From Pyrinomonadaceae bacterium (GTDB lineage Bacteria > Acidobacteriota > Blastocatellia > Pyrinomonadales > Pyrinomonadaceae): a stretch of DNA of 64,000 bases. Numbering within the stretch: the first letter of the stretch is position 1; the number at the start of each line of letters is the position of its first letter. The notes beneath the pieces are model-generated. The model saw nothing but the letters and a program-made list of their open reading frames with translations, ran no database searches and was not told the origin of the DNA. The stretch covers positions 108,451-172,450 of the forward strand of contig DASUNM010000015.1 in assembly GCA_036277115.1 (NCBI GenBank), written 5' to 3'. This document shows positions 1 to 30,280 of the stretch, piece by piece. The position numbers and the translations under genes are program-made.

Positions 1-34
1 TTGGGAACCTCCTGTGATGAAAAGAGACGAGTTA

Positions 35-1291
35 TCATTGTTCAAAATCGAGACGAATGGCTTTGGGTGGGTGAGGCTGATTTGCCGTTGCTCTGTCCCG
101 GCGGAATGCCTCAGCGTAATTGCGCACGTCGATCGCCTTAGCAGAGATCACGTCAACGCGTTTATCGATTGCAATGGTGACGCGAACACTGCGTTGCGCT
201 GGCGCGAACCGAGCAACCTCAGAACTGGCTGGTGTCACTTTATGTTCGGGCGTGGCGTCAATTATGACCGCGCTCGCTTCCGGCGACTGAGATTCCTCCA
301 GCGACCTCCAATTGATCGCAAAACGAACCGGGCGCTTCGAGTCTTTCGGGCGAATTCGGACAATAATCCTCGAATGCTGATTTGAAGGCCCTGGAGCTTC
401 GATAAAGGATCCTTCCGTAACATTCTCGACCCTGATTAACGCAACGCCACACGGCGCACAACCCAGATTGCCGCGAACCTCAGGAAAGGCCGGCGCCAAT
501 TTGCTTGCGGTGACGTTTATCGTGCCAATACTCGTCGAATCGTCCGGAGACGAACCGCTCAAATAGACGATCAGGTATTTGCCTTCGGTTTCCACTCGCA
601 CAGTCATGGGACGAACCGGGCGAGGCGGCGGTCGCGGCGGCGGTAAAGCATCCAGTCTGGGCTCGATCTCAAGACTGCCCCCAGGTTTTAAGGTAACGGT
701 ACGCGTCACAACTGCATAGCCAGCTCTTGAGACAGTGATTTCATACTCGCCTGGTGGAAAAGCGACATCTTCGATCGCGCTTGCATACGAACCCACGTGC
801 TGGTTCCGATCGATATTCCTAACTTCGATGGCGGTGCCGTCCACGGTAGGCTGAACGGTCAGCGTCGCCTTCAAGAGCTCAAGTGTCAGCGTCAACGAGG
901 AAGTGTCGCCGGCCTTTAGATCGACAGTTTGCTCGGCATCCCCGTAGCCTGGATGGCGCGCCGTGATCGTATAGGACATCGGCGGCAGTGTGAGAACAAT
1001 GGTTCCGCTGGTATCTAGTTTTTGCGATTCGCCATTCAGCCAAACTGAGCTGTCGGCCGGACTCACTGCAAGGTACAACCTCCCGGGTTTGACTCTGGCC
1101 GACGCGGGCTTAGGGCTGGACGGACGGCCGCTCCCCTTCTTCCGTGGGTTAGTTGAACGGTTAGTGCCTGCGGGCGGCGGTGGTCGGGTAGCGTTTTCGT
1201 CTTGAGCCTGAAGGTCACAAACCAAACCGCTAAAAATAGACACGAACATCAGGCAACAAAAAGGAATCCGCCAGTTGTGTTTGTAACTCAT
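35..1291 (-). CDS. Membrane-anchored/exported protein with Pro-rich linkers and two PEGA-like repeats; last gene of the 17-kb cluster
   Basis: ORF 35..1363. The internal ATG at 1291 lies 10 nt after the upstream stop (1302) and is preceded by GAGG. N-terminal hydrophobic helix IPFCCLMFVSIFSGLV. PEGA-type segments YTITARHPGYGDAEQTVDLKAG and FPPGEYEITVSRAGYAVVTRTVTLKPG. Confidence 0.7.
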   Translation of the reverse strand: MSYKHNWRIPFCCLMFVSIFSGLVCDLQAQDENATRPPPPAGTNRSTNPRKKGSGRPSSPKPASARVKPGRLYLAVSPADSSVWLNGESQKLDTSGTIVLTLPPMSYTITARHPGYGDAEQTVDLKAGDTSSLTLTLELLKATLTVQPTVDGTAIEVRNIDRNQHVGSYASAIEDVAFPPGEYEITVSRAGYAVVTRTVTLKPGGSLEIEPRLDALPPPRPPPRPVRPMTVRVETEGKYLIVYLSGSSPDDSTSIGTINVTASKLAPAFPEVRGNLGCAPCGVALIRVENVTEGSFIEAPGPSNQHSRIIVRIRPKDSKRPVRFAINWRSLEESQSPEASAVIIDATPEHKVTPASSEVARFAPAQRSVRVTIAIDKRVDVISAKAIDVRNYAEAFRRDRATANQPHPPKAIRLDFEQ

Positions 1292-1301
1292 GGTTGAAGC
1301 C

Positions 1302-2753
1302 TCACAAATCCTTGGCGCATCGAAACCCTGTATTCGCGTAACCAACCAAGGCGCCCCGCGCATCCCACCCTTTTCTAAAGGTTGCTGTGGCCTTTCCGGG
1401 AGTACTGCCCCAATAGCCTCCGCGAATTACTCTTAGTTCGGCTTGATTTTGATCGGGCGCTTGTCCTCCGGGATACGCCCTGAATTCGGTTGCCGTCCAC
1501 TCCCAGGCATTTCCGATCATGTCCATCACGCCAAAAGGGCTTTTCCCGTCCGGATAAGAACCCACATTCGCAAAGTGGCGGACGGTGGCATCGCCGGCGT
1601 TCGCGACGTTGTTTCGCCATTGATTTCCCCACGGATACAACCGGCCGTCGGTGCCACGCGCCGCGAATTCCCATTCTTCTTCGGTCGGCAAACGTTTACC
1701 GCTCCACTGTGCGTACGCATTGGCGTCGTACCAATCAACGCCGGTAACGGGATTCTGGTGGGAGCTATTTGGACAATTGCCTTTGACCCAACCTGGCGGC
1801 AGCCGATGATTTGTCGCCTTTACGAACTTTTCGTAATCACGGCACGCAACCTCGTGCTGATCAAGAAAAAAGGGTCGGACTGTGACCATGTGCGCCGGCC
1901 TTTCATGCTCATCGCCCAGATCATTTCCCATCCTGAATTCGCCGCCCGGAACGTAGACCATGCCCGATGGCGGCGTGGGGATGACTACTGCCGGCAAAGG
2001 GCCCGCTCGTTTGGGACCGAAGACAATCGCGAACGCAGTTACCGCGATAACCGTCACGCCGACTGCGACTGTCACCGGCAACCATGGAATATTTCTTTTC
2101 CGAGGGGCCGCCGGTAAGACTGCTTGCCACGGAGCGGCAATGTACACGGCACGATCGTCGCGCTGGGCATCGGTTGCACCAGTGTTTGGCGGCGACGTTT
2201 CGTTCTTCGAGTTTGTCCCCTCGAAGGCGGCATCTTTGGACAACCGGGCTGACAGATCCTGCGAAACCTGCTTGCTGACGCTGGTTGATTGGGCCCCAAC
2301 TGAAGCCTCACAAAAAGGACATGCACTCCTTGGAGTGAGAATTAAGACTCCAATTTCCGGACATTGATGTTCGGCAGGGGCGGCAGCGGGATGCGTTGCG
2401 CATCCTGGGCAACTGGGAGCAATTCCGTTTTCAACAGTGATTGAATAAAGCTTTCGCCGGACGGGCACGGCTGATTCGATGCTTATCACCTGACACGCGG
2501 GACATAAGTAGCGTTTGGCCGTCGGTCGCTCGCAGACAAAGCATTCGGAGCGGCGCAAGAAACCATTCGTCACTTTCGAAGGCCAAAACGTCGCGCAGTC
2601 ACAGCAGTACTGCCACCAGGCCTGATCCGGAAAGCCACTCCCGATCGCGTGCCCGCCCTGTTCGCATGCCACCAACGAATCTCCAGCGGCCCGGAACCGG
2701 AGCTGGTGCTGCGGACAATAAAAAGTAAAGCTCTGCGTTGCTTCGGGTGACAT
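1302..2753 (-). CDS. Single-pass membrane protein: N-terminal 14-Cys zinc-ribbon-like module, TM helix, C-terminal FGE-sulfatase (SUMF1-type) domain
   Basis: 483-aa ORF. Residues 12-148 carry YC..C..GH..YCCDC..CxxCER..CxxC..CPGC..HxC..CPFC. TM helix WLPVTVAVGVTVIAVTAFAIVF. FGE-sulfatase-like motifs include GGEFRMGND, RVIRGGYWGS and GFRCAKD. Confidence 0.8.
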   Translation of the reverse strand: MSPEATQSFTFYCPQHQLRFRAAGDSLVACEQGGHAIGSGFPDQAWWQYCCDCATFWPSKVTNGFLRRSECFVCERPTAKRYLCPACQVISIESAVPVRRKLYSITVENGIAPSCPGCATHPAAAPAEHQCPEIGVLILTPRSACPFCEASVGAQSTSVSKQVSQDLSARLSKDAAFEGTNSKNETSPPNTGATDAQRDDRAVYIAAPWQAVLPAAPRKRNIPWLPVTVAVGVTVIAVTAFAIVFGPKRAGPLPAVVIPTPPSGMVYVPGGEFRMGNDLGDEHERPAHMVTVRPFFLDQHEVACRDYEKFVKATNHRLPPGWVKGNCPNSSHQNPVTGVDWYDANAYAQWSGKRLPTEEEWEFAARGTDGRLYPWGNQWRNNVANAGDATVRHFANVGSYPDGKSPFGVMDMIGNAWEWTATEFRAYPGGQAPDQNQAELRVIRGGYWGSTPGKATATFRKGWDARGALVGYANTGFRCAKDL

Positions 2754-2828
2754 GTTTCAACTGCGCCGTCTTTGTCAAAAGGAGCCCGACGAACCTTGAA
2801 TATCCCGGCTCGCTCGTCGCAATGATGC

Positions 2829-4592
2829 TCATCCCTCTGGATTAAGCGGTGAAGGTGATGCCTTCTCGCTTGCGCTTGAGATCACGGTAACAAAAAGCCT
2901 CTGGGACGTGCTCCCACCACGTCCGTCGTTTATTGTGACGTTTATGATCTTCTGTCCGGGCTCAACACCCGTCGAATTGAATATTGCGGTATCTCCTTTA
3001 TGAATGATCTCGCCGGCCGACGCTTTCCAGTCAAAGTAGAGAGGTGAGTCCCCGTCAGGATCGGTGGCAAAAACCCAGAGCTTTACCTGCCCACCAGTCT
3101 CTACGGTGAGGCTGTCGGCTGTGAAAAATTCAAGTTTCGGAGAATGGTTTGGCTTTACCTCAGGTGGTGCGCGCGTGGCTGTCGCGGGAGAGAATTGCCG
3201 CGGCAGTACTACAATCGTCAAATCTCCGCTAACCGCGCCTCCATGATTGTCAGTTACACGTAATGTAATTTTCACGGGAACAGGCGAAATAATGTGGCCC
3301 ATTCCCGCAGTGTTTAGGATTGCGGTGGAACCAGAATCGGAGTTCGTCTTTGCGATTTCCAACGCGGGTGACGAACTTTGCCAATCGTATGAGAGCATCG
3401 CGTTCGTAGTGCTCGCCTCAGCTAGAGCATACAAGGACACTATTTCTCCGACTCGTATCTGTTGATTGTTGCAATTGCAGCGCGGGGGAACTGTTAGGCT
3501 CGGCGGATTGTTCAGGACGTTGCGAGACACAACCGAAATCCGTTCTTGTCGGGACGCCGTTAATCCGAGTTCATCAGTCACGACCAATTCGATTGTAAGA
3601 TCAGTCGAGATCGCTTTTGGGATGATGCCATCCGTGTTTAGCAAAGCGTTCGCGCCGTCTCCGTTAATCGTGCCGGCAGATGAAAGCCAACGGTAGCGAA
3701 GTTCACCGCCATCTGGATCATCAGCCTGCGCTCTTAACGCGACGACCTGTCCTTGCTGAACGAGATGTTCACACTCAATTGCTCGAATGCGGGGCGGACT
3801 ATTCAGCCATTCCGTTAAGGTTTGCGAAACCGCGGCTACCGGCCCGCCCAGACCTACCAGAATTCCAAAAACACCAACGGCAATGCTGATGGTGGTTACC
3901 CAATGTGAAAACGTTCTGGGCCGGTGCACTCTTAACCACTCAAGCGGCAATTTACAGCGGTCAACCCACGTGCTTGAATTTGCGAATCCAGCGAGGTAAG
4001 CCAGGCTCTGCGGCTTGTCCGGCGCGTCGTGCTCATCCGGGGAGTCAGCGGGATCTTTCGCCGCGCCAACCTGTGTTAGCCACTCGTTGCAGAATGGACA
4101 TTCCAATCGGGGAGTTACGTATGTAATTCCCAAAATCGTGCATTCATGTTTAGCCAGGTTACTTGTGAGAGTCGCGACCAGACAGCCCGGGCAAACAGGA
4201 GACGCCCTTCCGTCTTGCAGAATCGCGAAGGACTTGCTTACTGAATTCTCGGACGCAATTGTCAGAAGCTTACAGTCGTTGCACAGAAACCATCGCGTGA
4301 CTGGGCGTTCACATTGCGAACATTGCGTATATGCGTCGTCACCTTCAAGGATCTCCCGTGGGACAAACTTCTCGCAATCGCAGCAGTACACCCAGAACTC
4401 CGTATACGGAAAATCGGTTGCAACTTCATGCCCGTTTGCACAGACGATGGTAGAGGCGCGCAGGGACGACACCGCTGCGCGCTCGGTCCTGCAATATACC
4501 TGTATTAGATCTGGCTTCGCGGTCGCGGTTGTGGTTGGTCGCATGTGAATCACGGACGAGCCCCCGCTTGTGCTCTGGGCCCCCGAAAACAT
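2829..4592 (-). CDS. Single-pass membrane protein: same 14-Cys module, TM helix, three PKD/Ig-like repeats
   Basis: 587-aa ORF. Residues 33-168 align with the Cys modules of the two neighbouring genes. TM helix WVTTISIAVGVFGILVGLGG. Three repeats of about 90 aa contain DPDGGELRYRW, LSYDW and DPDGDSPLYFDW. Confidence 0.75.
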   Translation of the reverse strand: MFSGAQSTSGGSSVIHMRPTTTATAKPDLIQVYCRTERAAVSSLRASTIVCANGHEVATDFPYTEFWVYCCDCEKFVPREILEGDDAYTQCSQCERPVTRWFLCNDCKLLTIASENSVSKSFAILQDGRASPVCPGCLVATLTSNLAKHECTILGITYVTPRLECPFCNEWLTQVGAAKDPADSPDEHDAPDKPQSLAYLAGFANSSTWVDRCKLPLEWLRVHRPRTFSHWVTTISIAVGVFGILVGLGGPVAAVSQTLTEWLNSPPRIRAIECEHLVQQGQVVALRAQADDPDGGELRYRWLSSAGTINGDGANALLNTDGIIPKAISTDLTIELVVTDELGLTASRQERISVVSRNVLNNPPSLTVPPRCNCNNQQIRVGEIVSLYALAEASTTNAMLSYDWQSSSPALEIAKTNSDSGSTAILNTAGMGHIISPVPVKITLRVTDNHGGAVSGDLTIVVLPRQFSPATATRAPPEVKPNHSPKLEFFTADSLTVETGGQVKLWVFATDPDGDSPLYFDWKASAGEIIHKGDTAIFNSTGVEPGQKIINVTINDGRGGSTSQRLFVTVISSASEKASPSPLNPEG

Positions 4593-4638
4593 CTTGTCAG
4601 CTTCCTACACTCTATTAATCGGACCTTGTCTCGCGAAA

Positions 4639-6603
4639 CTATTCGTATTCGCTGCCGGCTGAAAGTTGTTGGGCTTCGTTCAGTTTCTCTTTGATCTTCT
4701 CGAGGTTCATGTTGGCAGTTCCGACGGCCTGTGGACTGAGCACCCATTGGTACTCTGTTATCGCGGTCTCAAAATCCTTCTCGATCATTGCAATGTCGCC
4801 CAACCACGCGTGAGGGCGCGCCCAGTCAGGCGCGAGCTGAACTGCTTTCTTGTAGAAAACCTTAGCCTCAGAGTAGTTTCTTTCCATGTAATATGAGGTG
4901 CCTAAATTGTTGTAAGGATTTGCCCAATTGGGATTGCGGCGAACTGCGTCAGAATAGAGTGTCCGCGCCGTTGAATAGTTCTTGAGCGATGCGTAGACCA
5001 GCCCCGCGCTGTTGGCAGGTAGAGCCCATGACGGATCCAGTTGGGCCGCTTTTACCCAGTGCTCAATCGCAGCTTGATTCTGGTTAGCCAAGTAGGCCAC
5101 TCGACCCTGGCAGTAGGCACTCTTTGCGCTAATAAGACTGTCACCAGGCTTCAATTCAGTAGCCCATGACATCGCTCTCGTGGCGATTTGCCATTCCGAG
5201 GCTGGCGCTTCTTCATAGCCAGGCTGAAGCAGGTTTTGGGTAAGCTGCGTGGCCTGCCTCGTCAGTAACGGCACCAGTCGCTCTCGGTACTTGCGCAACG
5301 TCTCGTCATTGGCGCCGTTGGCTTTCAGTTGGTTGTAGAGTTGATAGGCGTTCTGGCTTGCAGGCGGAAATAAATTGCCTCTCGCTATTGCGTCGTCAAG
5401 CTGCTTCTCGACGCTGTTACTTCCCACGGTGTTAAGGGAAACAGCAATAATCACAACCAGCAGGAACACCAATCCAATGCCTGCCATCAGAACCTTGACT
5501 GCGGTTGACAGAGGTGATGGGATTCGCGAAGTGGAAGGCGACGCCGACCAGGAAGTAGTGTCGATCGGCGAAGCCGTCACGTTCTCAACGTCACCAACAA
5601 ACGATCCAGCAGGTGTCGATCCGGGGACAGGTAGGTTCTCCGGTGCAGTCAATTCAACTGGTAGAGTGACGCTTTCATAGTCAGCCGCCCCAGAGGCTCC
5701 GAAGGCCAGGCCACAGCGTCCACAAAATTGCTCGGTGGGTTTTCCGGCGGTACCACAGTTGGGGCAGACGATAAGTTCTTGCGTAATGCGCTGCGGCCCG
5801 GCGAGCTTGATTTCGATTGCGCCTGCTTCTTTGACGACCCACCCGGCCTCAGTCCGATCGACTGACGCAGGTCGAATGACAATAATCTCGCCCGCTGATG
5901 GGTTGTCGCAGTTAAAGAGTTCGTAATAGGTGTCGTAATACTGCCGCTTCGATTTAAGTTTCCTGGCCTTAGGAATCGCGAAGGACAAGTTCAGGCCGGG
6001 CACACCCGGCAAAAGGACGTAGTCGCCGTCGGCCGACGCTGTTAGTTGGTTTCCAGCGCTATCCAATTTCAGTTTGGTTGTCGTCTTGAGACTGGTTAAG
6101 CACTCTGACACCGTGCACGGAAAATCCGGCAGGCGTTCAAGGACTTCATCGCAGAAAGGACAAGTGGAAAAGCTCGTCACGAAAGAGGCGCCGTAGTCGC
6201 GACAGTCGTGGTCGATGACGGAATGTGAAGGCTCTTGCAGACAGCCCGGACAGGTGGGAGTCGGTATGCCGTTCGTGATCGCAAAGACCTTGCGACGACC
6301 TGGTTCGTCTGATTCGACACTAATGACATTACAGTCCCCACAGACATAGCGGCGGACTACGTTGCGTTCACAAGCTGGACATTCTTTGCTGGCGGCTTCT
6401 TTTTTTGCCGTATCAACGAGCCAGCAATGCTGGCAGTCACAGCAATATTCCCACGACGAGCTGTCCGGAAAATTCTTGGCGAGAGCATGGCCACCTGACG
6501 CACAGAGAATTGGCTTACTCGACGGGGCGTCGAAACCCACTTTATGGGTGATGCAATAAGCGCGAATTACGCGAGCGGTAATCGCGTCGGCTGGGGCAGC
6601 CAT
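4639..6603 (-). CDS. Single-pass membrane protein: 14-Cys module, shared YY..YYE..PSAG domain, double zinc ribbon, TM helix, periplasmic TPR repeats
   Basis: ORF 4639..6690. The ATG at 6603 has a GAGGAG RBS and avoids overlap with the upstream gene. Cys module encoded at nt 6151-6558. CPNCG..FCGRCG at nt 5710-5766. TM helix VLMAGIGLVFLLVVIIAVSL. The C-terminal part has TPR-like repeats (AYCQGRVAYL, ALPANSAGLVY, NPYNNLGTSYY). Confidence 0.75.
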   Translation of the reverse strand: MAAPADAITARVIRAYCITHKVGFDAPSSKPILCASGGHALAKNFPDSSSWEYCCDCQHCWLVDTAKKEAASKECPACERNVVRRYVCGDCNVISVESDEPGRRKVFAITNGIPTPTCPGCLQEPSHSVIDHDCRDYGASFVTSFSTCPFCDEVLERLPDFPCTVSECLTSLKTTTKLKLDSAGNQLTASADGDYVLLPGVPGLNLSFAIPKARKLKSKRQYYDTYYELFNCDNPSAGEIIVIRPASVDRTEAGWVVKEAGAIEIKLAGPQRITQELIVCPNCGTAGKPTEQFCGRCGLAFGASGAADYESVTLPVELTAPENLPVPGSTPAGSFVGDVENVTASPIDTTSWSASPSTSRIPSPLSTAVKVLMAGIGLVFLLVVIIAVSLNTVGSNSVEKQLDDAIARGNLFPPASQNAYQLYNQLKANGANDETLRKYRERLVPLLTRQATQLTQNLLQPGYEEAPASEWQIATRAMSWATELKPGDSLISAKSAYCQGRVAYLANQNQAAIEHWVKAAQLDPSWALPANSAGLVYASLKNYSTARTLYSDAVRRNPNWANPYNNLGTSYYMERNYSEAKVFYKKAVQLAPDWARPHAWLGDIAMIEKDFETAITEYQWVLSPQAVGTANMNLEKIKEKLNEAQQLSAGSEYE

Positions 6604-6670
6604 AGCAATGTACTCCTCTTGGGAAACCTGTCGACTCGGGATTATCAGCGTCAGCGTGTTAGCTCGGGCT

Positions 6671-7837: not shown

Positions 7838-7856
7838 CTTTGCCTCCTCAGCAGTG

Positions 7857-11309: not shown

Positions 11310-11347
11310 CGTGATCTCCAATATCCGTTCGACCGGTTAACCTAAAT

Positions 11348-13051
11348 CTACGCGGCGCCGACCGCTCGCATCCGTTTCTGAGTTCGGGAAAATAACCTTG
11401 ACCATACCAGCCTTAGATATTCTCCACGAGTAAACTCGGCGGTCTCCGGGCACCAGTCGCCGAATTCGAAAGTAGATACACGGATCGACGATCGGCCAAG
11501 CTCAAGTTCCCCTTTTGCTTCTCTGCTCGTTAATTTCTTGGCCGTCTTTGCTGTGATCTCCTTCAGACTGTGCGGATCGCTTGAGAGGAACGGCCGAAGT
11601 TTGGCCACATCTTCGCCGCTCCACCCCACGGTGTGATCCGGATTGGGATCGAGCGTCGTATCAAGGAACTTGGCGAGCAGATTGGCAGCGCCATTGAATC
11701 GCTTCCAATCTTCGAGCTTGCGATTTTCGTTATCGGCGTACACTTCGCGCAGGCGTTTAATCTCTTTGGGCCAGGTGCGCGCCGGCAGGTCCCACGGAAT
11801 TTGCTGGGTAACAAGATGGTGCATGACCGCAGCAGACAAGAACACCGCTTCCGGCTCGATCTCAGTCTCACCGGCCGTGTAACGAGGAAGATGACGCAGA
11901 CTCATTTTTTCCGAGTCGAGATCCGGCGTTGATGCGCCGATCACATACGACTCCGGATTCCCGGTACCCGCGCGGGAGAAAAAGTTTAGCGCCGCCAGCG
12001 CGCCAACTATTTCCGCCGAGTTGAGTGGATTTCTTTGACTCTTACCGCCATTGCTCCAAACCTTTAATTTGTCAGGCTCAGGCTTGCCGGCAAGATAAAG
12101 TTCGTCAAAGTATTCCGCGCTGTGATCGCGGTAATATGCGAGGGCTTGCCGAGCGCGCGCCTCCATCGCTTCGGGTTCGGCGTAAAAACCGAGAAGGATC
12201 TGCTCGACGAGCTTTCGCTTATCCTCGATTGGCAGTCCATTGAATGCCGGTTTGTCGCCATGTTCTTTCGCAAGATCGTCAATCTGCTGGGTCGTCGGGT
12301 AATCGTCCTTAAGCGCGCCAAACGGAGGCTGCGGCGGCACACAGTACGGTGTCAGCAGGCAGGCGCCAACGCGCCAATCCCACGTCTGATTTTCTTTCTT
12401 GAGCGTGCCGAGATATTTGCCCATGACAGGAACTCCGCACGCGCCTGTCCCGCCATGAAGACTTCCGCAAAGGAAGAAGTTCGTGCTGACGTTTTGAAAT
12501 GCCGTCAGACTGCACGCTTTGCCACCGGGTGAATTCTCGTCGCGCAGCGATTCAGCGAAAACCGCCATAACCGCGGCGCCAATAAATGGCTTCTGATAGA
12601 AGCCGCGGTCAATTTCGACGTCAAGGTCTTTCTTTTCATAAAACGGAGAGAGAAATGGGAGCGAACTCTTGGTGGCGCCATATCTTGAATCGAGAATGCC
12701 GCCCAGGTTCTTCACAATGTTGTCAGAGTTAGAAGCCTGGGGTAGCTGCAACGGATCCAAGTGGCGAACTCGCATATCAATGTCCATCGCCCATCTACTA
12801 CTGGCCATACCGCCGGTTTGCTGCCCATTCAGCAACTCTTGCAGCTCCTGATAATCCTTTAGGCAATTTCCGAGAGCGACAGCCGCACCGGAATTCAAAT
12901 CCGGATCCAATCTCCAAATCTGCAAGGAATGACCGGCGCTCGTGAGTACGTCCTTCTCACTGTGCGTCGGGAAACCGATTGCCAGCAGACGAACCAGCGC
13001 TTCGGCCACCTTGGTGCCACTGCCGCCAACTGCAATAAAAACGTTGCGCAT
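11348..13051 (-). CDS. Divergent tubulin/FtsZ-superfamily GTPase (Tubulin_2-like)
   Basis: 567-aa ORF. N-terminal strand plus T1-like loop VFIAVGGSGTK (nt 13010-13027). T4 tubulin-signature-like HGGTGACG (nt 12434-12457), comparable to FtsZ GGGTGTGAAP. Confidence 0.8.
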   Translation of the reverse strand: MRNVFIAVGGSGTKVAEALVRLLAIGFPTHSEKDVLTSAGHSLQIWRLDPDLNSGAAVALGNCLKDYQELQELLNGQQTGGMASSRWAMDIDMRVRHLDPLQLPQASNSDNIVKNLGGILDSRYGATKSSLPFLSPFYEKKDLDVEIDRGFYQKPFIGAAVMAVFAESLRDENSPGGKACSLTAFQNVSTNFFLCGSLHGGTGACGVPVMGKYLGTLKKENQTWDWRVGACLLTPYCVPPQPPFGALKDDYPTTQQIDDLAKEHGDKPAFNGLPIEDKRKLVEQILLGFYAEPEAMEARARQALAYYRDHSAEYFDELYLAGKPEPDKLKVWSNGGKSQRNPLNSAEIVGALAALNFFSRAGTGNPESYVIGASTPDLDSEKMSLRHLPRYTAGETEIEPEAVFLSAAVMHHLVTQQIPWDLPARTWPKEIKRLREVYADNENRKLEDWKRFNGAANLLAKFLDTTLDPNPDHTVGWSGEDVAKLRPFLSSDPHSLKEITAKTAKKLTSREAKGELELGRSSIRVSTFEFGDWCPETAEFTRGEYLRLVWSRLFSRTQKRMRAVGAA

Positions 13052-13067
13052 AATCGAGTTCCTTCCC

Positions 13068-13385
13068 CTAAATAATTTCGCGCCGCCAAGGGCTCACCAG
13101 ATGACCGGTAAACATGCACAGAATGTAGATAATCCACGCCATTACAATTCCTTTCATCAACCCCCCGACGCCCACGAAGTTGAAGAAGTTCCTGGTCATA
13201 TACCAAACAACCAGCAGTACGATCACGACCGGAATTAGCCCGACCACGATTAGCAGCATCGTCTGTCCTCGGCTCCACGCCTTCTGAACGATGTTGATGG
13301 CCATGTACTTCCTGAGCCATTTGAAGCCCAACATCACGAGCGCGCAGATCGCCGCGATCACCAGAGCTGCTATGACCCAGTTCAT
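13068..13385 (-). CDS. Small 3-TM membrane protein
   Basis: ORF 13068..13559. The ATG at 13385 avoids overlap with the vWA gene. Three hydrophobic helices are present. Its stop lies 17 nt before the tubulin-like start. Confidence 0.6.
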   Translation of the reverse strand: MNWVIAALVIAAICALVMLGFKWLRKYMAINIVQKAWSRGQTMLLIVVGLIPVVIVLLVVWYMTRNFFNFVGVGGLMKGIVMAWIIYILCMFTGHLVSPWRREII

Positions 13386-13489
13386 CGCAGTTTCTTCGCA
13401 TCCTTCCTCGTCACAAGCGTCCAGGAATAATTCGAGAAAGCCTGAGCCTTGAATTAGAATTGCCAACACGCGCGTATCTCCCTTCTCAC

Positions 13490-14995
13490 TTAATCCGACG
13501 GCCCAATCCGCAAGTAGGCCTTCGCGACCACTTGATCCTTTGCTGTCGAGTTGTTCCACAGCCCAAGAAGCGCTGTCTCAAGATTGAATGTCCGGTTAGC
13601 AGTTTCCGGCGTTGTATCGAGATCGGTAGACCAACTCTTGATCCATTCCGGCGTACCTTGGTTGAGATTGACGCGACCCTCTACGCTGTAGAACCGCCAG
13701 GAAGGTTCTCCTGTTCCCGGTGGATACGACGCGGTCGCCTCCAAAACGAGATTGCCACCTTCAAGATGCGCGCCGGTTATGTTGAGCTCGGGAAATCTCG
13801 CGCCCGATTTACTGTCACTTGGGGGGTGGATTGGCTTGAGTTCCCATTTGATCAACCGGACAAGTTCCTGTTCATTGCCCGCATCGAGAGCATGAGAAGA
13901 CCAGGGCACTTTTACTTGAATCGTAAACGGCTTCGGTCCGGACCGCTCGGTATCAACATCCACTTGCATCGTGAATCTCTGCGGCGGGCCGCCCTGGTTT
14001 TTCGCCTTGTGGAGCGCCCCTCGTGATTCTTTGGGAACGGAAATTTCGAACTGGGCCGCAGCGTCCGTGTATGGGAAAGATAAATTCAACTCTCGGATGC
14101 AATCTAAGCAGTTGTCTATCAATGGACGTAGACGCTCTTTGAGGGATCGCACCAGCGAATCAAGCGCAACCTGATCGGGCGAGAAGATGTAAAGGAAGAA
14201 GGGGCGGAAGGAGGATGGATTGTTGTTCCTGGTCTCGTACGGGATGGCGGCGCCGCTCACTTCTGAATACACCTTGCCGCGAAAATCTGCGCGAACGCCC
14301 AGCACGCATCCACCCCAACCCGCCTTCAGTAACTCCGCAATCTTTTGCCTGACGCAAAATTGATCGGAGCCGGCGTTACAGTTTTGGTTCGTATCTCCTT
14401 TTTTGGTGGATTGCACGCCGTCAGTAACCAGGATTTGGAACCGAGCTGGCGGCGGCGGCTCCGCGGAATCGGTGCCGTTGCTTCGAGTTGGAGTTGCCGC
14501 CTGCTTTGAACCAGTGCCGTTGGGCTGGTAGCCGACTTTGAATGCGCTGATGGCGCCCGACAGGTTTGTTTCACCGGCACGATAAACGGAAGGGTCTTGC
14601 GAGGCAGTAGTCAGATCCATATCGGGAAGCGGCGGCCCAATTGCGGAGCCTACTCGGCGGACGGAGACGCGCACGTCAGGACCCGCGAAAGTTCCAGTGG
14701 CAAAACGAAGCTCTCGCAATGTCTTGCCGAAAATTGTCTGGCCGTCGCGTGACACGTAGCCGGCCATGCTCCCGCTTTCATCCAGATAGACAATGAGTTC
14801 GTTAGTAGTCGCGATCGATGGCGACGGCGGAAGAGATGTCGCCGGCTTGTTCTTCACCTCAGGCGGCCATTCCGGCGCTGGAGTGCCACATCCTGTAAAC
14901 AAAACCAAACCGCTTAGAACCAGCACGTGCCACGAGACGCTCAAGAGTCGGGTTCGCGCATTGATAGCTTGGGTGTGTTTGTAGTGTCTAGTCAT
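13490..14995 (-). CDS. vWA-domain lipoprotein
   Basis: 501-aa ORF. Lipobox LFTGC. MIDAS motif DESGS at nt 14768-14782 (ELIVYLDESGSMAG), followed later by ILVTDGVQS. Confidence 0.8.
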   Translation of the reverse strand: MTRHYKHTQAINARTRLLSVSWHVLVLSGLVLFTGCGTPAPEWPPEVKNKPATSLPPSPSIATTNELIVYLDESGSMAGYVSRDGQTIFGKTLRELRFATGTFAGPDVRVSVRRVGSAIGPPLPDMDLTTASQDPSVYRAGETNLSGAISAFKVGYQPNGTGSKQAATPTRSNGTDSAEPPPPARFQILVTDGVQSTKKGDTNQNCNAGSDQFCVRQKIAELLKAGWGGCVLGVRADFRGKVYSEVSGAAIPYETRNNNPSSFRPFFLYIFSPDQVALDSLVRSLKERLRPLIDNCLDCIRELNLSFPYTDAAAQFEISVPKESRGALHKAKNQGGPPQRFTMQVDVDTERSGPKPFTIQVKVPWSSHALDAGNEQELVRLIKWELKPIHPPSDSKSGARFPELNITGAHLEGGNLVLEATASYPPGTGEPSWRFYSVEGRVNLNQGTPEWIKSWSTDLDTTPETANRTFNLETALLGLWNNSTAKDQVVAKAYLRIGPSD

Positions 14996-15029
14996 CGGCT
15001 ACCACTTCGGTCGTAATGCTCGGTACTCC

Positions 15030-15516
15030 CTACTGCGCAGTTGCGTGAGCGGCGAGGGGGGTTCGTCCGGCAAATGGCAGAGACATCGCGGCCGCCCGCT
15101 CCTCGTTGCTGAGGAATGGAGACGTGTGGACAGCAGCGTCCGCGTGGGACATCAACAGTTGTCCCTGCGCAGAAATGAGGACGCCCAGGAGAAAGAACAA
15201 GCCGCCGACAAGAACTCCAACCGCCACGCCGATCATGAGGCAAAAAGAAGAAGACGACTCCAGCCGCGGACTGACTGGCCGGACTCGGTCCGAAAGGTGC
15301 AGACGACTGGCTGCTTGAGCTGGCAGCAGCGCCAACGATGAACCAAAACATGAAAATGACTGCGCCCAGAATGACGCCAACGACTTTGACGGTCATGCCC
15401 AATCCGGTCATAACGCGCGCCGCTCGGTAAAGATCTAAATACCGGTGGACCAGAGCACTGCCTGGCCTTTCACTGTTTGTGTTGCCCGATGTCGTAGCGG
15501 CGTATGTGGAATCCAT
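15030..15516 (-). CDS. Small 2-TM membrane protein, apparently split by a 1-nt frameshift in a T5 run (pseudogene or assembly error)
   Basis: ORFs 14992..15516 and 15030..15380 overlap in different frames. The first has a plausible N-terminus and TM1. The second has a plausible TM2 and tail. Removing one T from TTCTTCTTTTTG (A5 at 15242-15246 on the plus strand) joins them into about 161 aa. Confidence 0.5.
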
Positions 15517-15592
15517 ATGTCCTCCGTAACGTTGGGTTTCAGTTAAGCTCGTCGCCCGCTTAGTCGAGTAACAAAAGATCGTCGATGCCGGA

Positions 15593-16663
15593 CTACGGAC
15601 TAGCGGGCGGAACGAGCACGGCTCGGGGCACCGTCATTTTTATCGACAACACTTCTTTCACTCGAGTAACACTCACGTTCTGCAGCGCTCGCAGCGCCTG
15701 CTCGTCGCGGTTGTTCGTTGCGGCCAGGGTTGAAAAGCGTTTCATCAAATTCAATGAACCGGTCACAACGGCTGCTGCCTGTTCGTCGCGCATCAAAACG
15801 CACATTTCCGCTGGGTACTCCTGATTTGTGCCGCGGCTCAGGTTCAGGCCAAAGCCTCGTGCGACGTTGATTTGCTTCAAAAGACTTCCGACGCCGCCCA
15901 GATCAAACAGCGACAGAGCGAGCGAGGTCGCTGTCAAAGCCGCATCCGCCATGTCCAGGCTGCCTTGCGGAATTACTAGAAAAGCTCGGACGGAGCTGTT
16001 CCGCGCTGTCATGCCTGCCGCAATTTGTTTGTAGGGAGATGAGGAAATAAATCTTTGTTGCGAGTCACCAAGCGCTCGGAAAACTGCGGCGGCGGCTTCA
16101 CGACTTCCGGCAAAGACGGTGCCCGTTTGCGGCAGGGCGACATAGTCCTTGCCGTTCGTATAGACAGGATGCCCGTCGACGCGCTGCTCTTGCCAGCCTC
16201 TCCCCTTTAGACTTGCTATCTCTTGTTTTCGATTGAACGAACCATGCACTAACAGCCCGGCCGTCGCCTGGGTGTTAATGCCACTAAAGACAACGGCGGT
16301 CTTGACTTCTTCGCTACTCAAAACGAGCTGCTGAAGGATCCCTTCAAACTGATCTCCTTTGAAAAGCTGTTTCAAGTCGTTGTCGTTTCGCACCGTCGCC
16401 CAATCGATAATCACAACAGCACAGCTATCAATCGGCACTAGATCAAGGACGCTCGATTGGCGGCGACTGCATGCGCACATCGACAACAGCAGCAGAGTGC
16501 TACACAACAAACCACATAGCTGCAACGCCGGTTTTCGCGCCTGCTTGAACACATGAGCAGCGATGCTTTCCTTGCACGACGGACCGCTTAGAGAATCCAA
16601 TCTCATGTGGTTGAATGCCTGCCTGAACCGCAATCCGCTCTTGCTTCGTCGGCTATAGTTCAT
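15593..16663 (-). CDS. Hypothetical lipoprotein / membrane-anchored protein
   Basis: 356-aa ORF. Hydrophobic LCGLLCSTLLLLSMCAC has a lipobox-like end. ATGA overlap with the upstream AraC-type gene. No motif recognised. Confidence 0.6.
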   Translation of the reverse strand: MNYSRRSKSGLRFRQAFNHMRLDSLSGPSCKESIAAHVFKQARKPALQLCGLLCSTLLLLSMCACSRRQSSVLDLVPIDSCAVVIIDWATVRNDNDLKQLFKGDQFEGILQQLVLSSEEVKTAVVFSGINTQATAGLLVHGSFNRKQEIASLKGRGWQEQRVDGHPVYTNGKDYVALPQTGTVFAGSREAAAAVFRALGDSQQRFISSSPYKQIAAGMTARNSSVRAFLVIPQGSLDMADAALTATSLALSLFDLGGVGSLLKQINVARGFGLNLSRGTNQEYPAEMCVLMRDEQAAAVVTGSLNLMKRFSTLAATNNRDEQALRALQNVSVTRVKEVLSIKMTVPRAVLVPPASP

Positions 16664-17124
16664 TTCGGGGACTCCTGCGTAACCAACAACTTGTTTTCAC
16701 TTGCGCGATTGCCGTCGCTGACGCGAGAGCATTCAAAATGGACCTTCCGATACTCCACCGGCGTCATGCCGTAGGCGGCCTTGAAGCTTTTAGTAAATTG
16801 GCTGGGATTCGGAATGCCTACAGCCGCACCAATCTGCTGAATCGAAAGAAAGCTGGTTTCCAATTGATCTTTCGCCTTTTGCAAACGCACCAGCGTCAGA
16901 TACCGCTGTGGAGACACTCCCGTCTCAGCCTTAAAAAGGTGAGCCAGGCGCCACGGAGAAAGATTTACCTCGGCACTCATGTCTCGTAATCCCAACTTGC
17001 GCTGGAATGAGCTTTCCAAGAACACGCGCACAATCTGCACTCTTCGGTCTCGTCCCTTCGCCGCCAAAACTTTGGCGCGATTCTGTTCAGAGTTCTCAAC
17101 ATTTTTGTCGCGCTTGTTCGACAT
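16660..17124 (-). CDS. Short AraC/XylS-family HTH regulator (DNA-binding domain only)
   Basis: 154 aa. NLSPWRLAHLFKAETGVSPQRYL and FLSIQQIGAAVGIPNPSQFTKSFKAAYGMTPVEYRK form the typical double HTH. Confidence 0.8.
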   Translation of the reverse strand: MSNKRDKNVENSEQNRAKVLAAKGRDRRVQIVRVFLESSFQRKLGLRDMSAEVNLSPWRLAHLFKAETGVSPQRYLTLVRLQKAKDQLETSFLSIQQIGAAVGIPNPSQFTKSFKAAYGMTPVEYRKVHFECSRVSDGNRASENKLLVTQESPK

Positions 17125-19067: not shown

Positions 19068-19118
19068 CGCTCTTTCAGCGGTCCGGTCTGTTGACAATGA
19101 ATTTCGACGCAATACGTT

Positions 19119-19739: not shown

Positions 19740-19748
19740 TGGCCATCA

Positions 19749-23749: not shown

Positions 23750-23762
23750 TTTCGTGTCTCCT

Positions 23763-30265: not shown

Positions 30266-30280
30266 AGTTGGCCTCGTAAG

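Follow-up and report, generated by a model that had tools for sequence, protein, structure and literature searches.

A tubulin-like GTPase and a giant Hsp70/actin-fold ATPase in the conserved core of an unnamed, putatively envelope-spanning bacterial module

The operon described here is an acidobacterial member of a widespread, unnamed envelope-spanning module. It lies in the window (the whole 64,000-nucleotide stretch of Pyrinomonadaceae DNA that was analysed), and its core consists of five genes encoding a vWA lipoprotein, a small membrane protein with 3-4 transmembrane (TM) segments, a tubulin/FtsZ-like GTPase (Tub), an Hsp70/actin-fold ATPase (Act) and a bitopic coiled-coil protein that ends in a cytoplasmic domain named CCm. 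The order of this core was co-conserved across Acidobacteriota and in distant cyanobacterial and metagenomic relatives, and its recurrence in 45 other genomes puts it far outside what chance would produce. We tentatively favour an interpretation in which the module is an FtsZ/FtsA-like membrane scaffold docking envelope proteins, the main rival being a conflict system.

Twelve ORFs, all on the minus strand and tightly packed, were present between positions 35 and 17124, each at the coordinates given in the first-pass annotation, and TM predictions agreed with its account of the membrane proteins. The ATGA overlap at 16660-16663 and the 10-nt gap between the “FGE-sulfatase” and “PEGA” genes (ATG 1291) were reproduced on re-measurement; the 3-TM gene and Tub were separated by 16 nt, and the 174-aa TM ORF overlapped the vWA gene by 4 nt. 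Two spacings had to be revised: the supposed largest gap of ~100 nt, between the 3-TM and vWA genes, shrinks to 20 nt with the start GTG 13469, and the 26-nt gap before the Hsp70-like gene becomes 38 nt when measured from ATG 11309. An AGGAGG sequence follows the PEGA stop at the left end of the window, so the gene train may continue past it. All genes of the proposed 12-gene unit exist, but the true core is five genes; the AraC-type regulator, a 356-aa lipoprotein and the PEGA protein are lineage-specific. In the wider neighbourhood, a conserved ECF sigma/anti-sigma/TPR-CHAT set was located upstream of the train.

Gene order was compared in a set of 45 related genomes. Act was directly downstream of Tub in all 43 loci where the order was testable, and at least five Tub-Act fusion proteins (P0236, P0248, P0250, P0296 and P0354), spread over three acidobacterial clusters and two distant clusters, were counted as direct evidence supporting the view that Tub and Act work together. 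The vWA gene was upstream of Tub in 37 of 39 loci, the small 3-TM gene immediately 5' of Tub in at least 37 of 43, and the CCm gene directly after Act in essentially every locus with enough sequence (29 of 36 by tblastn alone); at least one gene with a cysteine-rich (Cys) module was present in 29 of 33. The two NTPase genes are co-conserved with each other and with the module-bearing genes, so the lack of co-conservation that the earlier description had named as a refuting outcome was not observed. Its statement that tubulin-like and actin-like NTPases are normally found in contexts of their own was wrong: ftsA and ftsZ are neighbours in the dcw cluster, and FtsA and FtsZ interact at the membrane, where they recruit bitopic proteins that have periplasmic domains. 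FtsZ-FtsA, also a tubulin-fold GTPase and an actin/ASKHA-fold ATPase encoded side by side, is the best functional analogy for adjacent or fused Tub and Act followed by bitopic proteins. A specific sequence relationship was not found, however (FtsA was a marginal match for Act, E=2.5, in a profile search of PDB sequences), the order is reversed (Tub before Act), Act is three times the size of FtsA, and dcw genes are not nearby.

Pfam gave strong support for the HTH_18, TPR_2, Big_9/PKD, FGE-sulfatase and PEGA domains of the first-pass annotation, weak support for Tubulin_2 and MreB, and none for vWA; additional evidence was then gathered for Tub, Act and the vWA protein, whose domain calls lacked clear support. 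Tub, encoded by the third core gene (11348..13051, minus strand; 567 aa), carried a T1-like motif FIAVGGSGTK (aa 5-14) and a tubulin signature GSLHGGTGACG (aa 196-206), both in invariant columns, a conserved segment SNGGxSQxNPLNSAE (aa 333-347) which may be a T7/H8 equivalent, and a helical C-terminal domain. Its match to Pfam Tubulin_2 was below the cut-off (E=0.024; 14 bits against 27). The AF2 model (pLDDT 84, pTM 0.90) retrieved nearly only FtsZ or tubulin among the top 50 PDB matches in Foldseek (E ~1e-3, probability up to 1.0), with TMt values (TM-score normalised to target length) of 0.36-0.38 against FtsZ structures, a modest backing for the tubulin fold. A Tub profile search retrieved 1415 relatives; in a sample of 36 of the more distant ones, 25 matched Pfam Tubulin_2 (best 1.4e-10) and 4 matched Tubulin, and hhalign aligned Tub with these relatives at 100% probability. 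Against an approximate E. coli FtsZ sequence, hhalign of the Tub profile aligned only the T4 motif, not significantly. The motifs, the Foldseek matches and the transitive profile link bear out the proposed tubulin-like fold and support Tub as a divergent relative of Pfam Tubulin_2/FtsZl1. The locus thereby joins the FtsZl1/Tubulin_2 lineage of Makarova and Koonin, in which it forms a sub-branch of short, divergent proteins; the first-pass annotation had been unsure of this placement.

Act, the fourth core gene product (7857..11309, minus strand), starts at ATG 11309, giving a giant protein of 1150 aa which is 100% identical to a database protein. Its assigned part is the nucleotide-binding core, ~aa 540-1000; the N-terminal ~530 aa are helical and then beta-rich, and ~150 aa follow at the C-terminus. 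Invariant alignment columns support the motifs of the core: phosphate-1 (DFGTSNT, 545-551), VDESTAIA (746-753), phosphate-2 (DVGGGTAD, 770-777) and an adenosine motif GGNGWG (918-923). The window protein matched Pfam MreB at E=0.0045, and its profile matched MreB (1.9e-7) and the mortalin nucleotide-binding domain (NBD; 1.5e-3) among PDB sequences. The AF2 model (pLDDT 82.6) gave 455 Foldseek matches at E<=1e-3, headed by DnaK/BiP NBDs (4.7e-10) and including MreB (TMt 0.57). Motifs, profile and model together support an intact nucleotide-binding core of Hsp70/MreB type, and the Hsp70/actin (ASKHA) fold first proposed for this protein holds. Act is nearer to Hsp70 NBDs than to filament-forming actins, and may perhaps be a switch or chaperone, not a polymer.

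The first core gene (13490..14995, minus strand) encodes an extracytoplasmic vWA-like lipoprotein of 501 aa. Its lipobox is LFTGC (Cys36), and its MIDAS motif consists of D72-E-S74-G-S76 together with T191-D192. C36, D72, S74 and D192 were invariant in 32 orthologues, in agreement with the intact MIDAS reported earlier, and the gene was also found in the distant cyanobacterial and metagenomic loci. Cys206 and Cys214, a conserved pair, may be linked by a disulfide in the periplasm; this and the lipobox would fit an outside location of the protein. The window protein itself had no Pfam match; among the 32 orthologues, VWA_2 was weakly matched by 14 (best 8e-4), VWA by 3 and VWA_CoxE by 2. The conserved ~250-aa C-terminal domain matched no known fold.

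The second core gene (13068..13469, minus strand) encodes a small polytopic membrane protein (3 TM, ~133 aa). It most likely starts at GTG 13469 and not at ATG 13385, as indicated by an AAGGGAG Shine-Dalgarno sequence and by the conservation of the first 28 aa among orthologues. The N-terminal segment is acidic, the cytoplasmic loop basic, and the C-terminal tail (GHLVSPWRRExI) conserved; this protein is a candidate membrane anchor for Tub. In distant relatives the position is taken by the gene of a 4-TM protein (146-170 aa), which overlaps the start of Tub or directly adjoins it.

The fifth core gene (6671..7837, minus strand) encodes a bitopic “anchor” protein (CC406) with a signal peptide, a periplasmic coiled coil, one TM (aa 181-199, counted on the ORF of 406 aa), a coiled coil in the cytoplasm and the ~110-aa C-terminal CCm domain; the CCm HMM also matched the distant loci L047, L051, L053 and L055. 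Three variable receptors follow, all on the minus strand: TPR683 (4639..6603), with Cys module, CCm, zinc ribbon, TM and periplasmic TPR (TPR_2 2e-18, plus DZR/Zn_Ribbon); PKD587 (2829..4592), with Cys module (aa 30-170), TM and three periplasmic PKD/Big_9 Ig-like domains (Big_9 4.8e-10, K319L-like_PKD 1e-8, PKD_4 4e-6); and a third receptor (1302..2753) with Cys module (aa 9-150), TM and a periplasmic FGE-sulfatase-fold domain (1.1e-54). According to TM prediction and module mapping, the Cys and CCm modules face the cytoplasm, and the TPR, PKD and FGE domains face the periplasm. Across loci, the outer domains of the variable single-pass proteins were TPR, PKD, FGE-sulfatase or SH3, TPR being the commonest (16 of 47 Cys-module proteins). 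The Cys module had 14 invariant Cys/His among 25 sequences, consistent with four zinc sites. The earlier proposal of a common cytoplasmic module on interchangeable single-pass proteins is supported, with a correction: the Cys module was found in only three of the five, CC406 and TPR683 share the second module (CCm), and the PEGA protein has neither.

This last protein (35..1291, minus strand; Pfam PEGA 4.4e-11), a secreted or anchored PEGA/CarboxypepD_reg protein, had homologues adjoining the system only in L007 and L012. The ORF at 14992..15516 (minus strand; 174 aa), a small membrane protein described earlier as having two TMs, has one as read, the second appearing only after a frame switch at ~15,230-15,270; frame analysis points to a likely frameshift or assembly error. 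The same position was occupied elsewhere by Zn-ribbon or GYF_2 proteins with TM2 or other TM domains (TM2 matches of 1e-12 to 1e-14; also GYF_2 and Zn_Ribbon), and a TM2-domain protein was also present within the Picosynechococcus cluster. An accessory lipoprotein of 356 aa without known domain (15593..16663, minus strand), assigned from locus comparison and orthologue lipoboxes, was found in ~10 loci, where its position varies: ahead of vWA, between Tub and Act, or behind the CCm gene. Relatives also encoded envelope-type accessories (MotA_ExbB and OmpA, SH3_3, and TM2 proteins with GYF_2 or Zn-ribbon N-termini), and a membrane-anchored Amidohydro_3 was encoded in at least 14 of their loci.

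The first-pass annotation knew of no named system with this composition, and this stands: no family in PADLOC, NCBIfam or PHROGs names the module, PADLOC matched no core protein, no phage match was obtained for the core proteins with PHROGs and a phage search, and a literature search found no paper naming it. Among described systems, it comes closest to the FtsZl1-vWA operons (2010) and to the tubulin and HSP70 themes seen in DO-GTPase systems (2020). In the former, as here, a divergent tubulin/FtsZ GTPase lies beside a MIDAS-bearing, often membrane-associated vWA protein and several TM proteins, some variants have OmpA and MotA/ExbB-like partners (as at L052), and relatives of Tub match Tubulin_2; a role in membrane remodelling was proposed for them, and one neighbourhood in the supplement (M. 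magneticum amb2957-2961) also contains a 1626-aa “DnaK (HSP70)” gene (PMC2875224). However, classical FtsZl1 proteins are of 760-1200 aa and encoded directly after vWA, whereas Tub and its relatives are of 490-570 aa and separated from vWA by the small TM gene; the window Tub falls below the Tubulin_2 threshold, and that survey, in which no Acidobacteria were represented, describes neither an obligatory giant ASKHA partner nor a CCm anchor or Cys-module receptors (PMC2875224).

In the scaffold that we tentatively favour, Tub and Act would form a stoichiometric complex on the inner side of the cytoplasmic membrane, to which the small TM protein would tether it, and would assemble in a GTP- and ATP-dependent manner, possibly by polymerisation. 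The Cys and CCm modules would be docking adaptors recruiting or clustering a changeable set of bitopic proteins, whose periplasmic domains, with the vWA MIDAS site, would bind ligands in the envelope or outside the cell. Such a scaffold would most likely organise, anchor or remodel components of the envelope; cell division and DNA partition are less likely roles. Synteny, the Tub-Act fusions, the distant cores, folds and motifs, topology, envelope-type accessories and the literature analogies support this scaffold, and toxin-type effector domains, searched for in the window locus with Pfam and PADLOC, were not found, which was also counted in its favour. Counted against it were the modest Foldseek support for the tubulin fold, the sub-threshold Pfam match of the window Tub, the Hsp70-like character of Act and the hosts, since to our knowledge Blastocatellia and the cyanobacterial hosts are not known as gliders. 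The logic would resemble not only the recruitment of bitopic divisome proteins by FtsZ-FtsA but also the Myxococcus Agl-Glt focal-adhesion complex. Agl-Glt likewise has a cytoplasmic actin-fold protein and a GTPase coupled by a bitopic protein with cytosolic Zn-ribbon/GYF motifs (those of GltJ bind MglA-GTP and recruit MreB; PMC11135422), periplasmic TPR proteins, a MotA/TolQ-like motor (here in some variants) and a MIDAS vWA lipoprotein, CglB, an outer-membrane adhesin at bacterial focal adhesions (PMC9946355). This is analogy only: the proteins are not homologous beyond shared generic domains, the Myxococcus GTPase is the Ras-like MglA and not tubulin-like, and CglB is an outer-membrane protein, the present vWA protein a predicted outward-facing lipoprotein.

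A possible, if rather doubtful, alternative is a threshold-regulated conflict (anti-invader or abortive) system, in which the FGE-sulfatase/“FGS”, TPR, PKD and vWA domains would detect invaders or a damaged envelope and the NTP-dependent assembly of Tub/Act would set the threshold; as output, small TM or TM2 proteins, an amidohydrolase or an ion channel would damage the membrane or cell wall, or CHAT would act by proteolysis. The parts overlap those of the DO-GTPase/GAP1-N2 “NTP-dependent conflict systems”, membrane-proximal operons with variable components, read as NTP-dependent assemblies, in which tubulin, HSP70, extracellular/TM vWA, FGS, Zn ribbons, TPRs and caspase/CHAT recur (Kaur, Burroughs, Iyer & Aravind 2020, PMC7159879). 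Receptors turned over around a constant core even between close relatives (in L001 and L003, with Tub 88-89% identical, an amidohydrolase gene takes the slot of PKD587), relatives' genes were found on mobilizable plasmids and patchily in cyanobacteria, transposases adjoined locus L055, and trypsin, dynamin, AAA_35, STAND-like and ion channel genes were nearby, with four CHAT ORFs within the window; several of these features fit a conflict system as well as or better than a scaffold. However, the defining DO-GTPase, GAP1 and FNIII proteins were not found at the locus, and the tubulin+vWA and HSP70+GrpE themes, non-overlapping in those systems (PMC7159879), are here always together and sometimes fused. 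Pfam and NCBIfam searches of the locus revealed no nuclease, NADase, TIR or toxin, the PADLOC and phage results given above also count against a conflict role, CHAT was linked in only ~1/3 of loci, and the core was strongly conserved and syntenic across the whole acidobacterial class (mean column identity of Tub 64%), unusual for fast-evolving defence genes.

We consider it improbable that the module is an array for transmembrane signal transduction. In this reading the bitopic proteins would be receptors, their Zn-ribbon modules would pass ligand binding on to the NTPases, and the adjacent AraC-type, ECF sigma and anti-sigma regulators would turn it into a transcriptional output. Its ectodomains are of kinds typical of bacterial sensor kinases, and regulators lie immediately upstream on the same strand: two HTH-only AraC-type genes (16660..17124, HTH_18 4e-23; 17495-17986, HTH_18 1.4e-24) and a set (18204..23441) of an anti-sigma-like TM protein (18204-19112), an ECF-type sigma factor (19119-19739; Sigma70_r4_2 1e-5) and a TPR-CHAT protein with signal peptide and C-terminal TM (19749-23441; CHAT 4.8e-60). 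Homologues of this set preceded the system in the nearest relatives (L001, L003, L004, L034, L035 and L036; partially in L005, L012 and L042), that is, in ~1/3 of loci and none of the distant ones, and AraC homologues adjoined it only in L001 and L003, with three tandem copies; because of this limited linkage, no regulator belongs to the core. Nor are we aware of any case in which a tubulin or Hsp70 fold relays a signal to transcription.

Still less probable is a dedicated Hsp70-like chaperone, Act with Tub as co-factor, which would fold, insert or assemble the Cys-rich Zn-ribbon membrane proteins and a surface structure with the vWA lipoprotein. The best structural matches of Act were Hsp70 NBDs, and client-like Cys and CCm modules are always encoded next door. 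In MoxR-vWA chaperone pairs (e.g. the Bat aerotolerance operon and RavA-ViaA), a vWA protein is similarly coupled to an NTPase and to TPR/SH3-containing envelope proteins. NTPase chaperones are indeed usual partners of vWA proteins (PMC7159879), but no AAA+ MoxR gene was found here, the NTPases being of tubulin and Hsp70 folds, and the membrane separates the vWA domain from Act. Neither an Hsp70 substrate-binding domain in Act nor a DnaJ or GrpE partner was detected with Pfam and Foldseek, and the obligatory tubulin-like partner and the fusions would be left unexplained.

Type II partition depends on actin-like NTPases and type III on tubulin-like ones, and relatives are on cyanobacterial plasmids, but a TubZRC- or ParMRC-like partition system is highly improbable: the core has no centromere-binding adaptor gene, all its components other than Tub and Act are membrane or periplasmic, and the acidobacterial copies are chromosomal (contigs up to 4.8 Mb). 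A chance juxtaposition of unrelated genes is refuted by the gene order conserved in 45 genomes. Eight of 10 sampled distant relatives had the same core, including those on plasmids of Gloeothece PCC 7822 and Picosynechococcus, and these copies in culturable cyanobacteria offer a setting where the module could be tested.

The core of five genes was co-inherited across the related loci. In a neighbourhood sample obtained by scanning one genome per species (46 loci; tblastn and HMMs applied to our own ORF calls, made with a simple script), the gene for Act1150, the giant Hsp70/actin-fold ATPase (7857..11309, minus strand), lay directly after the gene for Tub567, the tubulin-like GTPase (11348..13051, minus strand), in 43 of the 43 loci with enough sequence. 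The vWA lipoprotein gene was upstream of Tub in 37 of 39 loci, the 3-TM gene lay between vWA and Tub in at least 37 of 43, and a bitopic protein carrying the CCm domain was encoded directly after Act in practically every locus. Downstream genes encoding a Cys module numbered at least one in 29/33 loci and at least two in 17/33. Failure of the two NTPase genes to be conserved together, or with the Cys-module genes, had been named in the first-pass annotation as the outcome that would speak against coupling; with Act after Tub in every case and a Cys-module gene in 29 of 33, co-conservation was found instead. Moreover, Tub and Act were fused into one polypeptide in three acidobacterial and two distant clusters (for example MDA2925659.1 from Acidobacteria bacterium AH-259-G07, locus L013), the fusion entries P0236, P0248, P0250, P0296 and P0354 being single polypeptides of 1341-1740 aa.

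Close homologues of Tub567 numbered 292; none had a name, and every one came from Acidobacteriota (Blastocatellia, Pyrinomonadaceae, Chloracidobacterium). In the tubulin/FtsZ superfamily the T1 loop follows strand S1 and the T4 loop bears the signature GGGTG(S/T)G; the nucleotide-binding loops were present in Tub567 (FIAVGGSGTK, aa 5-14, and GSLHGGTGACG, aa 196-206), and G9, G10, S11, G12, G200, G201, T202, G203, A204 and G206 were invariant in 26 sequences. The top 50 Foldseek matches of its AF2 model (pLDDT 84.4, pTM 0.90) in the PDB were nearly all FtsZ proteins and tubulins, with probability up to 1.0; their scores were modest, with E values near 1e-3, target-normalised TM-scores of 0.36-0.38 and identities of 8-15%. 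At the sequence level, Pfam Tubulin_2 (PF13809) was sub-threshold (E=0.024, 14.3 bits, cut-off 27), the Tub profile had no match among PDB sequences, and hhalign against E. coli FtsZ gave a non-significant alignment confined to the 26 residues of the T4 segment. The same profile searched against 1.8 billion representatives recovered 1415 relatives, of which about 60 were the family itself and the remainder included many proteins of about 500 aa, with E values of 1e-20 to 1e-28 for this distant group. Tubulin_2 was matched by 25 of a sample of 36 of the distant relatives (best 1.4e-10) and Tubulin (PF00091) by 4 of the 36 (best 8e-6), and hhalign joined the Tub family to them with 100% probability. 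The link from Tub567 to Tubulin_2 is thus transitive, through relatives found by profile, and we conclude that Tub567 probably belongs with the Tubulin_2/FtsZl1 lineage, as a sub-branch of short, divergent proteins. Superfamily members polymerise in a GTP-dependent manner, and the next subunit's T7 loop contributes a catalytic acidic residue; the conserved segment SNGGxSQxNPLNSAE, with a near-invariant E347 at a predicted helix start, is a candidate T7-loop equivalent. No match to Tub was found by tblastn against phage genomes.

Act1150 had 115 close homologues in the same taxa. Its phosphate-1, phosphate-2, connect and adenosine motifs, typical of the ASKHA superfamily, were all intact, and D545, G547, T548, S549, N550, E748, S749, D770, G772-G774, D777, G919 and N920 were invariant in 28 sequences. 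The Act profile matched MreB (1.9e-7) and Hsp70 nucleotide-binding domains (NBDs; about 1e-3) among PDB sequences; the AF2 model (pLDDT 82.6) matched the DnaK/BiP NBD at 4.7e-10, with 455 Foldseek matches at 1e-3 or better and a target-normalised TM-score of 0.57 for MreB, and Pfam MreB_Mbl was sub-threshold (E=0.0045, 16 bits versus 27). The ASKHA core spans approximately residues 540-1000. No Pfam match was obtained for the N-terminal ~530 and C-terminal ~150 residues, and a profile of the N-terminal 530 aa found nothing significant in the PDB: its best match, tubulin chaperone C (E=0.5), was disregarded.

The vWA lipoprotein (vWA501; 13490..14995, minus strand) carried the elements of the MIDAS motif (DxSxS ... 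T ... D) as YLDESGSM (aa 70-77) and TDG (aa 191-193). Across 32 orthologues D72, S74 and D192 were invariant, T191 was present in at least 90%, and the lipobox C36 and the Cys206/Cys214 pair were conserved. Pfam matched VWA_2 in 14 of these 32 (weakly, best 8e-4), VWA in 3 and VWA_CoxE in 2, and gave no match for the window protein itself; a vWA fold is probable. Against the PDB the vWA profile found nothing relevant, a PsbQ match being spurious and due to the signal peptide. Small proteins combining a cytoplasmic GYF_2 or zinc-ribbon domain with TM2 (GxHRFYLG motif) recurred immediately upstream of vWA, among others at L014:6923-7519 and L028:413-895.

Two further domains recurred in the putative receptors. 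The Cys module (~140 residues) contained CxxH/CxxC-type pairs of Cys/His residues, 14 of these being invariant and others nearly so, a complement consistent with four zinc sites, and was covered by no Pfam model. It was always N-terminal to the TM helix or else in soluble proteins, and is predicted to be cytoplasmic because basic residues precede the helix. The extracytoplasmic parts of 47 Cys-module proteins comprised TPR (16), FGE-sulfatase (5), PKD/Big_9 (4), SH3_3 (3) and Cds6_C (2), the rest being without assignment; a word-index-limited search of a large database with the Cys-module profile returned 5 short proteins. CCm (~110 residues) formed the cytoplasmic C-terminus of the anchor protein CC406 (6671..7837, minus strand), separated the Cys module from the TM helix in the TPR-type receptor (4639..6603, minus strand), and was carried once, twice or three times by soluble Cys+CCm proteins. 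The four-zinc Cys module and CCm are two apparently undescribed domains and candidate adaptors.

In the window itself, twelve consecutive minus-strand ORFs span 17124 to 35 with short gaps or overlaps between them. There is an ATGA at 16660-16663, TM174 (a small membrane ORF, 14992-15516) overlaps vWA by 4 nt, and the gaps measure 16 nt between the 3-TM gene and Tub and 10 nt between the FGE-sulfatase and PEGA (35..1291) genes. The gap of about 100 nt placed at the 3-TM gene was not retained: this gene very probably starts at GTG 13469, which is preceded 8 nt upstream by an AAGGGAG Shine-Dalgarno sequence and adds 28 residues conserved among orthologues, so that only 20 nt follow the vWA stop. 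Act starts at ATG 11309, giving 1150 aa with 100% identity to a Pyrinomonadaceae MAG protein. The second half of the TM174 ORF (14992-15516, minus strand) reads as out-of-frame, Arg/Pro/Gly-rich sequence, and a second TM helix (LMIGVAVGVLVGGLFFLLGVLI) is regained in another frame with the switch near 15,250 (15,230-15,270); this ORF probably carries a frameshift or a MAG assembly error. Among the domains assigned in the first-pass annotation, Pfam supported AraC HTH, TPR, PKD/Big_9, FGE-sulfatase and PEGA in the window products, left Tubulin_2 and MreB below threshold and did not match vWA. A scan for consensus promoters and terminators gave no more sites than shuffled sequence, and was therefore uninformative about co-transcription. 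Close to the window edge (1-45, minus strand), the PEGA stop is followed by AGGAGG, which resembles a Shine-Dalgarno sequence; the gene train may continue past the left end.

Outside the core, gene content was variable. Only the window, L001 and L003 had AraC genes beside the system; the 356-aa lipoprotein (window 15593..16663, minus strand) was found in about 10 loci at shifting positions, and PEGA in two. These three are accessories. Receptor content varied among close relatives: in L001 and L003, whose Tub is 88-89% identical, the place of the window's PKD gene (2829..4592, minus strand) was taken by a membrane-anchored Amidohydro_3 protein of ~580 aa (L001:18597-20339), which occurred in at least 13 other loci (L003, L004, L008, L009, L024, L025, L028, L032, L034, L035, L036, L039 and L043) and had no homologue anywhere in the 64-kb window. 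We read this member of the downstream set as D-aminoacylase-like. In L035 (MFD09212 bin, 10001-15200) Tub and Act were split into several ORFs, probably through long-read indel error and not true pseudogenisation. Acidobacterial-type clusters were also seen in MAGs labelled Clostridia, Heliomicrobium/Heliobacteriaceae or Actinomycetota (L031, L039, L043, L045), labels that could reflect mis-binning or horizontal transfer.

The pairing extended to more distant genomes. Among ten sampled Tub relatives, an Act homologue was verified as adjacent or fused in eight, one had a large unverified downstream gene and one lacked an Act gene. Genes for a vWA-like lipoprotein, for a 4-TM protein (146-170 aa) and for a protein with CCm recurred in this sample, along with accessories such as MotA_ExbB plus OmpA, Dynamin_N, trypsin, AAA_35 and a protein with a TM2 domain. 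Four annotated plasmids carried the cluster: Cy782204 of Gloeothece verrucosa PCC 7822 and those of Picosynechococcus sp. PCC 7003, 73109 and 8807. Of these, the plasmids of Gloeothece PCC 7822 and Picosynechococcus PCC 7003 were inspected gene by gene; the cluster proteins are WP_013325767-772 in the former and WP_065715614-620 in the latter. The Gloeothece plasmid is mobilizable and 47.5 kb long (cluster L053, NC_014503.1 39251-47534), and its Tub is annotated as "tubulin-like doman-containing protein"; the Picosynechococcus plasmids are large, and the cluster copy (L054, NZ_CP016476.1) ends with a TM2-domain protein.

The module is best classed among the known but uncharacterised FtsZl1/Tubulin_2-vWA membrane systems. 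Pfam Tubulin_2 models the FtsZ-like proteins of Makarova & Koonin (PMC9871819), whose FtsZl1 genes neighbour vWA, diverged GTPase, kinase and OmpA genes as well as families B1-B9, with a proposed role in membrane remodelling (Makarova & Koonin 2010, PMC2875224). Shared with FtsZl1 was the upstream vWA-like lipoprotein gene, in 37/39 loci and in the distant relatives. In addition, the MotA/ExbB-like and OmpA-like genes following the core in L052:8656-10963 and L051:11185-13304 echo the Deinococcus FtsZl1 + MotA/TolQ + OmpA and the cyanobacterial FtsZl1 + B7 + OmpA/MotB-like operons (PMC2875224 supplement). In contrast, catalogued FtsZl1 proteins have 760-1200 aa and long extensions, with none from Acidobacteria and only one neighbourhood in which a giant "DnaK" gene is listed, without comment (PMC2875224), whereas Tub567 has only 567 aa and its locus lacks a P-loop GTPase, a kinase and an OmpA gene. 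Since neither length nor catalogued partners matched, Tub567 was filed as a related sub-branch and not as FtsZl1 proper. No functional study of FtsZl1/Tubulin_2 proteins and no paper naming the module were found in the literature. The operon is real, more general than could be seen in the first-pass annotation, and as such undescribed so far.

A MoxR-vWA system was rejected: no AAA+ MoxR ATPase gene lies beside the vWA gene, and no AAA+ domain was found in the window locus or in the conserved genes of the 46 related loci. DO-GTPase/GAP1 systems comprise paired TRAFAC DO-GTPases and GAP1, with FNIII in the GAP1-N2 type; neither a P-loop GTPase nor an FNIII domain was found in any of the 12 window products, and this identity was likewise rejected, GAP1 itself, for which no library model exists, being judged absent from the lack of an unassigned cytoplasmic protein besides Tub and Act. 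Kaur et al. 2020 (PMC7159879) reread related firmicute and actinobacterial operons as such conflict systems, in which tubulin+vWA and HSP70+GrpE are distinct themes that do not overlap; in the module, by contrast, both NTPase folds are always combined.

The two great cytomotive families are NTPases of the tubulin fold and of the actin fold. The premise of the first-pass annotation that they normally live apart overlooked ftsA-ftsZ, established gene neighbours with these very folds, which are the best functional analogy for Tub-Act. To our knowledge, FtsZ-FtsA is the only well-understood bacterial case of a physical pair of the two folds. The module would be a second, independent pairing, which is conserved, occurs as a fusion in some genomes and is connected with a vWA lipoprotein and interchangeable receptors. 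A second likeness, by analogy and not homology, links it to Myxococcus focal adhesions, where the vWA lipoprotein CglB (PMC9946355) and the membrane protein GltJ connect with MglA-GTP and MreB by way of cytosolic Zn-ribbon and GYF motifs of GltJ (PMC11135422). Some loci here even encode GYF_2- or Zn-ribbon-TM2 proteins.

The nucleotide sites of both NTPases are intact, the receptors are modular, and the inside/outside topology of the module proteins is consistent. We tentatively favour a scaffold that organises the envelope: Tub and Act would assemble at the inner membrane face, tethered by the small TM protein, with bitopic proteins docking onto the assembly through their Cys and CCm modules, while periplasmic domains and the vWA MIDAS site might bind envelope or external ligands. 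That the module is instead a conflict system is possible but rather unlikely. Carriage on plasmids, patchy occurrence among cyanobacteria, the turnover of receptors and the presence of CHAT, trypsin and STAND-like genes nearby would fit; however, the core is strongly conserved, any known effector is absent, and PADLOC-DB v2 gave no match for the vWA, Tub, Act, CC406 and Cys-module regions, its sole match being a weak RmrT hit (2.4e-4) on the PKD repeats. NCBIfam and PHROGs, like PADLOC, gave no useful match for core proteins.

A more specific form of the scaffold reading is unlikely: Tub and Act as an obligate heteromeric GTP- and ATP-dependent assembly, a composite tubulin-fold/actin-fold scaffold or filament, in some genomes one polypeptide, that is membrane-tethered and reads out or positions modular trans-envelope receptors. 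If true, it would be a second FtsZ/FtsA-like partnership outside the divisome and would represent a new, plasmid-spread prokaryotic class of "integrin-like" outside-in/inside-out coupling. More generally, the module could reveal a new link between cytoplasm and envelope in remodelling, adhesion or immunity, and provides FtsZl1/Tubulin_2 proteins with a concrete, testable set of partners. Its interest lies in the obligatory tubulin-fold/Hsp70-fold partnership, the two new candidate adaptor domains and the culturable plasmid-bearing hosts (Picosynechococcus PCC 7003, 73109 and 8807; Gloeothece PCC 7822).

A signal relay to transcription is improbable. The AraC genes are lineage-specific (window 16660..17124, minus strand, with a second HTH-only AraC gene upstream of the system at 17495-17986). 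Further upstream, an anti-sigma-like TM protein and an ECF-type sigma factor (18204-19739) lie between the system and a TPR-CHAT gene (19749-23441; 1230 aa, signal peptide and C-terminal TM helix). This set was conserved upstream in the nearest relatives and partly in others, the sigma/anti-sigma-like pair being kept in L001, L003, L004, L034, L035 and L036; because its position is conserved in the nearest relatives, the pair could control the operon. A dedicated chaperone, built around the Hsp70-like fold of Act1150, is decidedly improbable: Hsp70 chaperones proper (the DnaK family) have a C-terminal substrate-binding domain and DnaJ/GrpE co-chaperones, and Act1150 was rejected as one, having neither an HSP70 match in Pfam or NCBIfam nor a substrate-binding domain, drawing its best TM scores from NBD-only PDB chains and lacking DnaJ and GrpE genes in the window locus. 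Partition of the TubZRC/ParMRC type, or chance, is most improbable. Such partition systems have a centromere and a small gene for a centromere-binding adaptor beside the NTPase, and this identity was rejected on gene content: the conserved neighbours of Tub and Act all encode membrane or periplasmic proteins, no such adaptor gene is among them, and the sole DNA-binding genes are the lineage-specific AraC genes.

Beyond the operon, an island of caspase-like CHAT genes extends over 19749-35801 (19.7-35.8 kb). Its four CHAT ORFs are the TPR-CHAT gene named above, two CHAT fragments (23876-24922 and 26899-27624) and a further TPR-CHAT gene (32991-35801); a TPR_12 protein (27769-29364) and a Ser/Thr kinase (30281-32065) are also encoded there.
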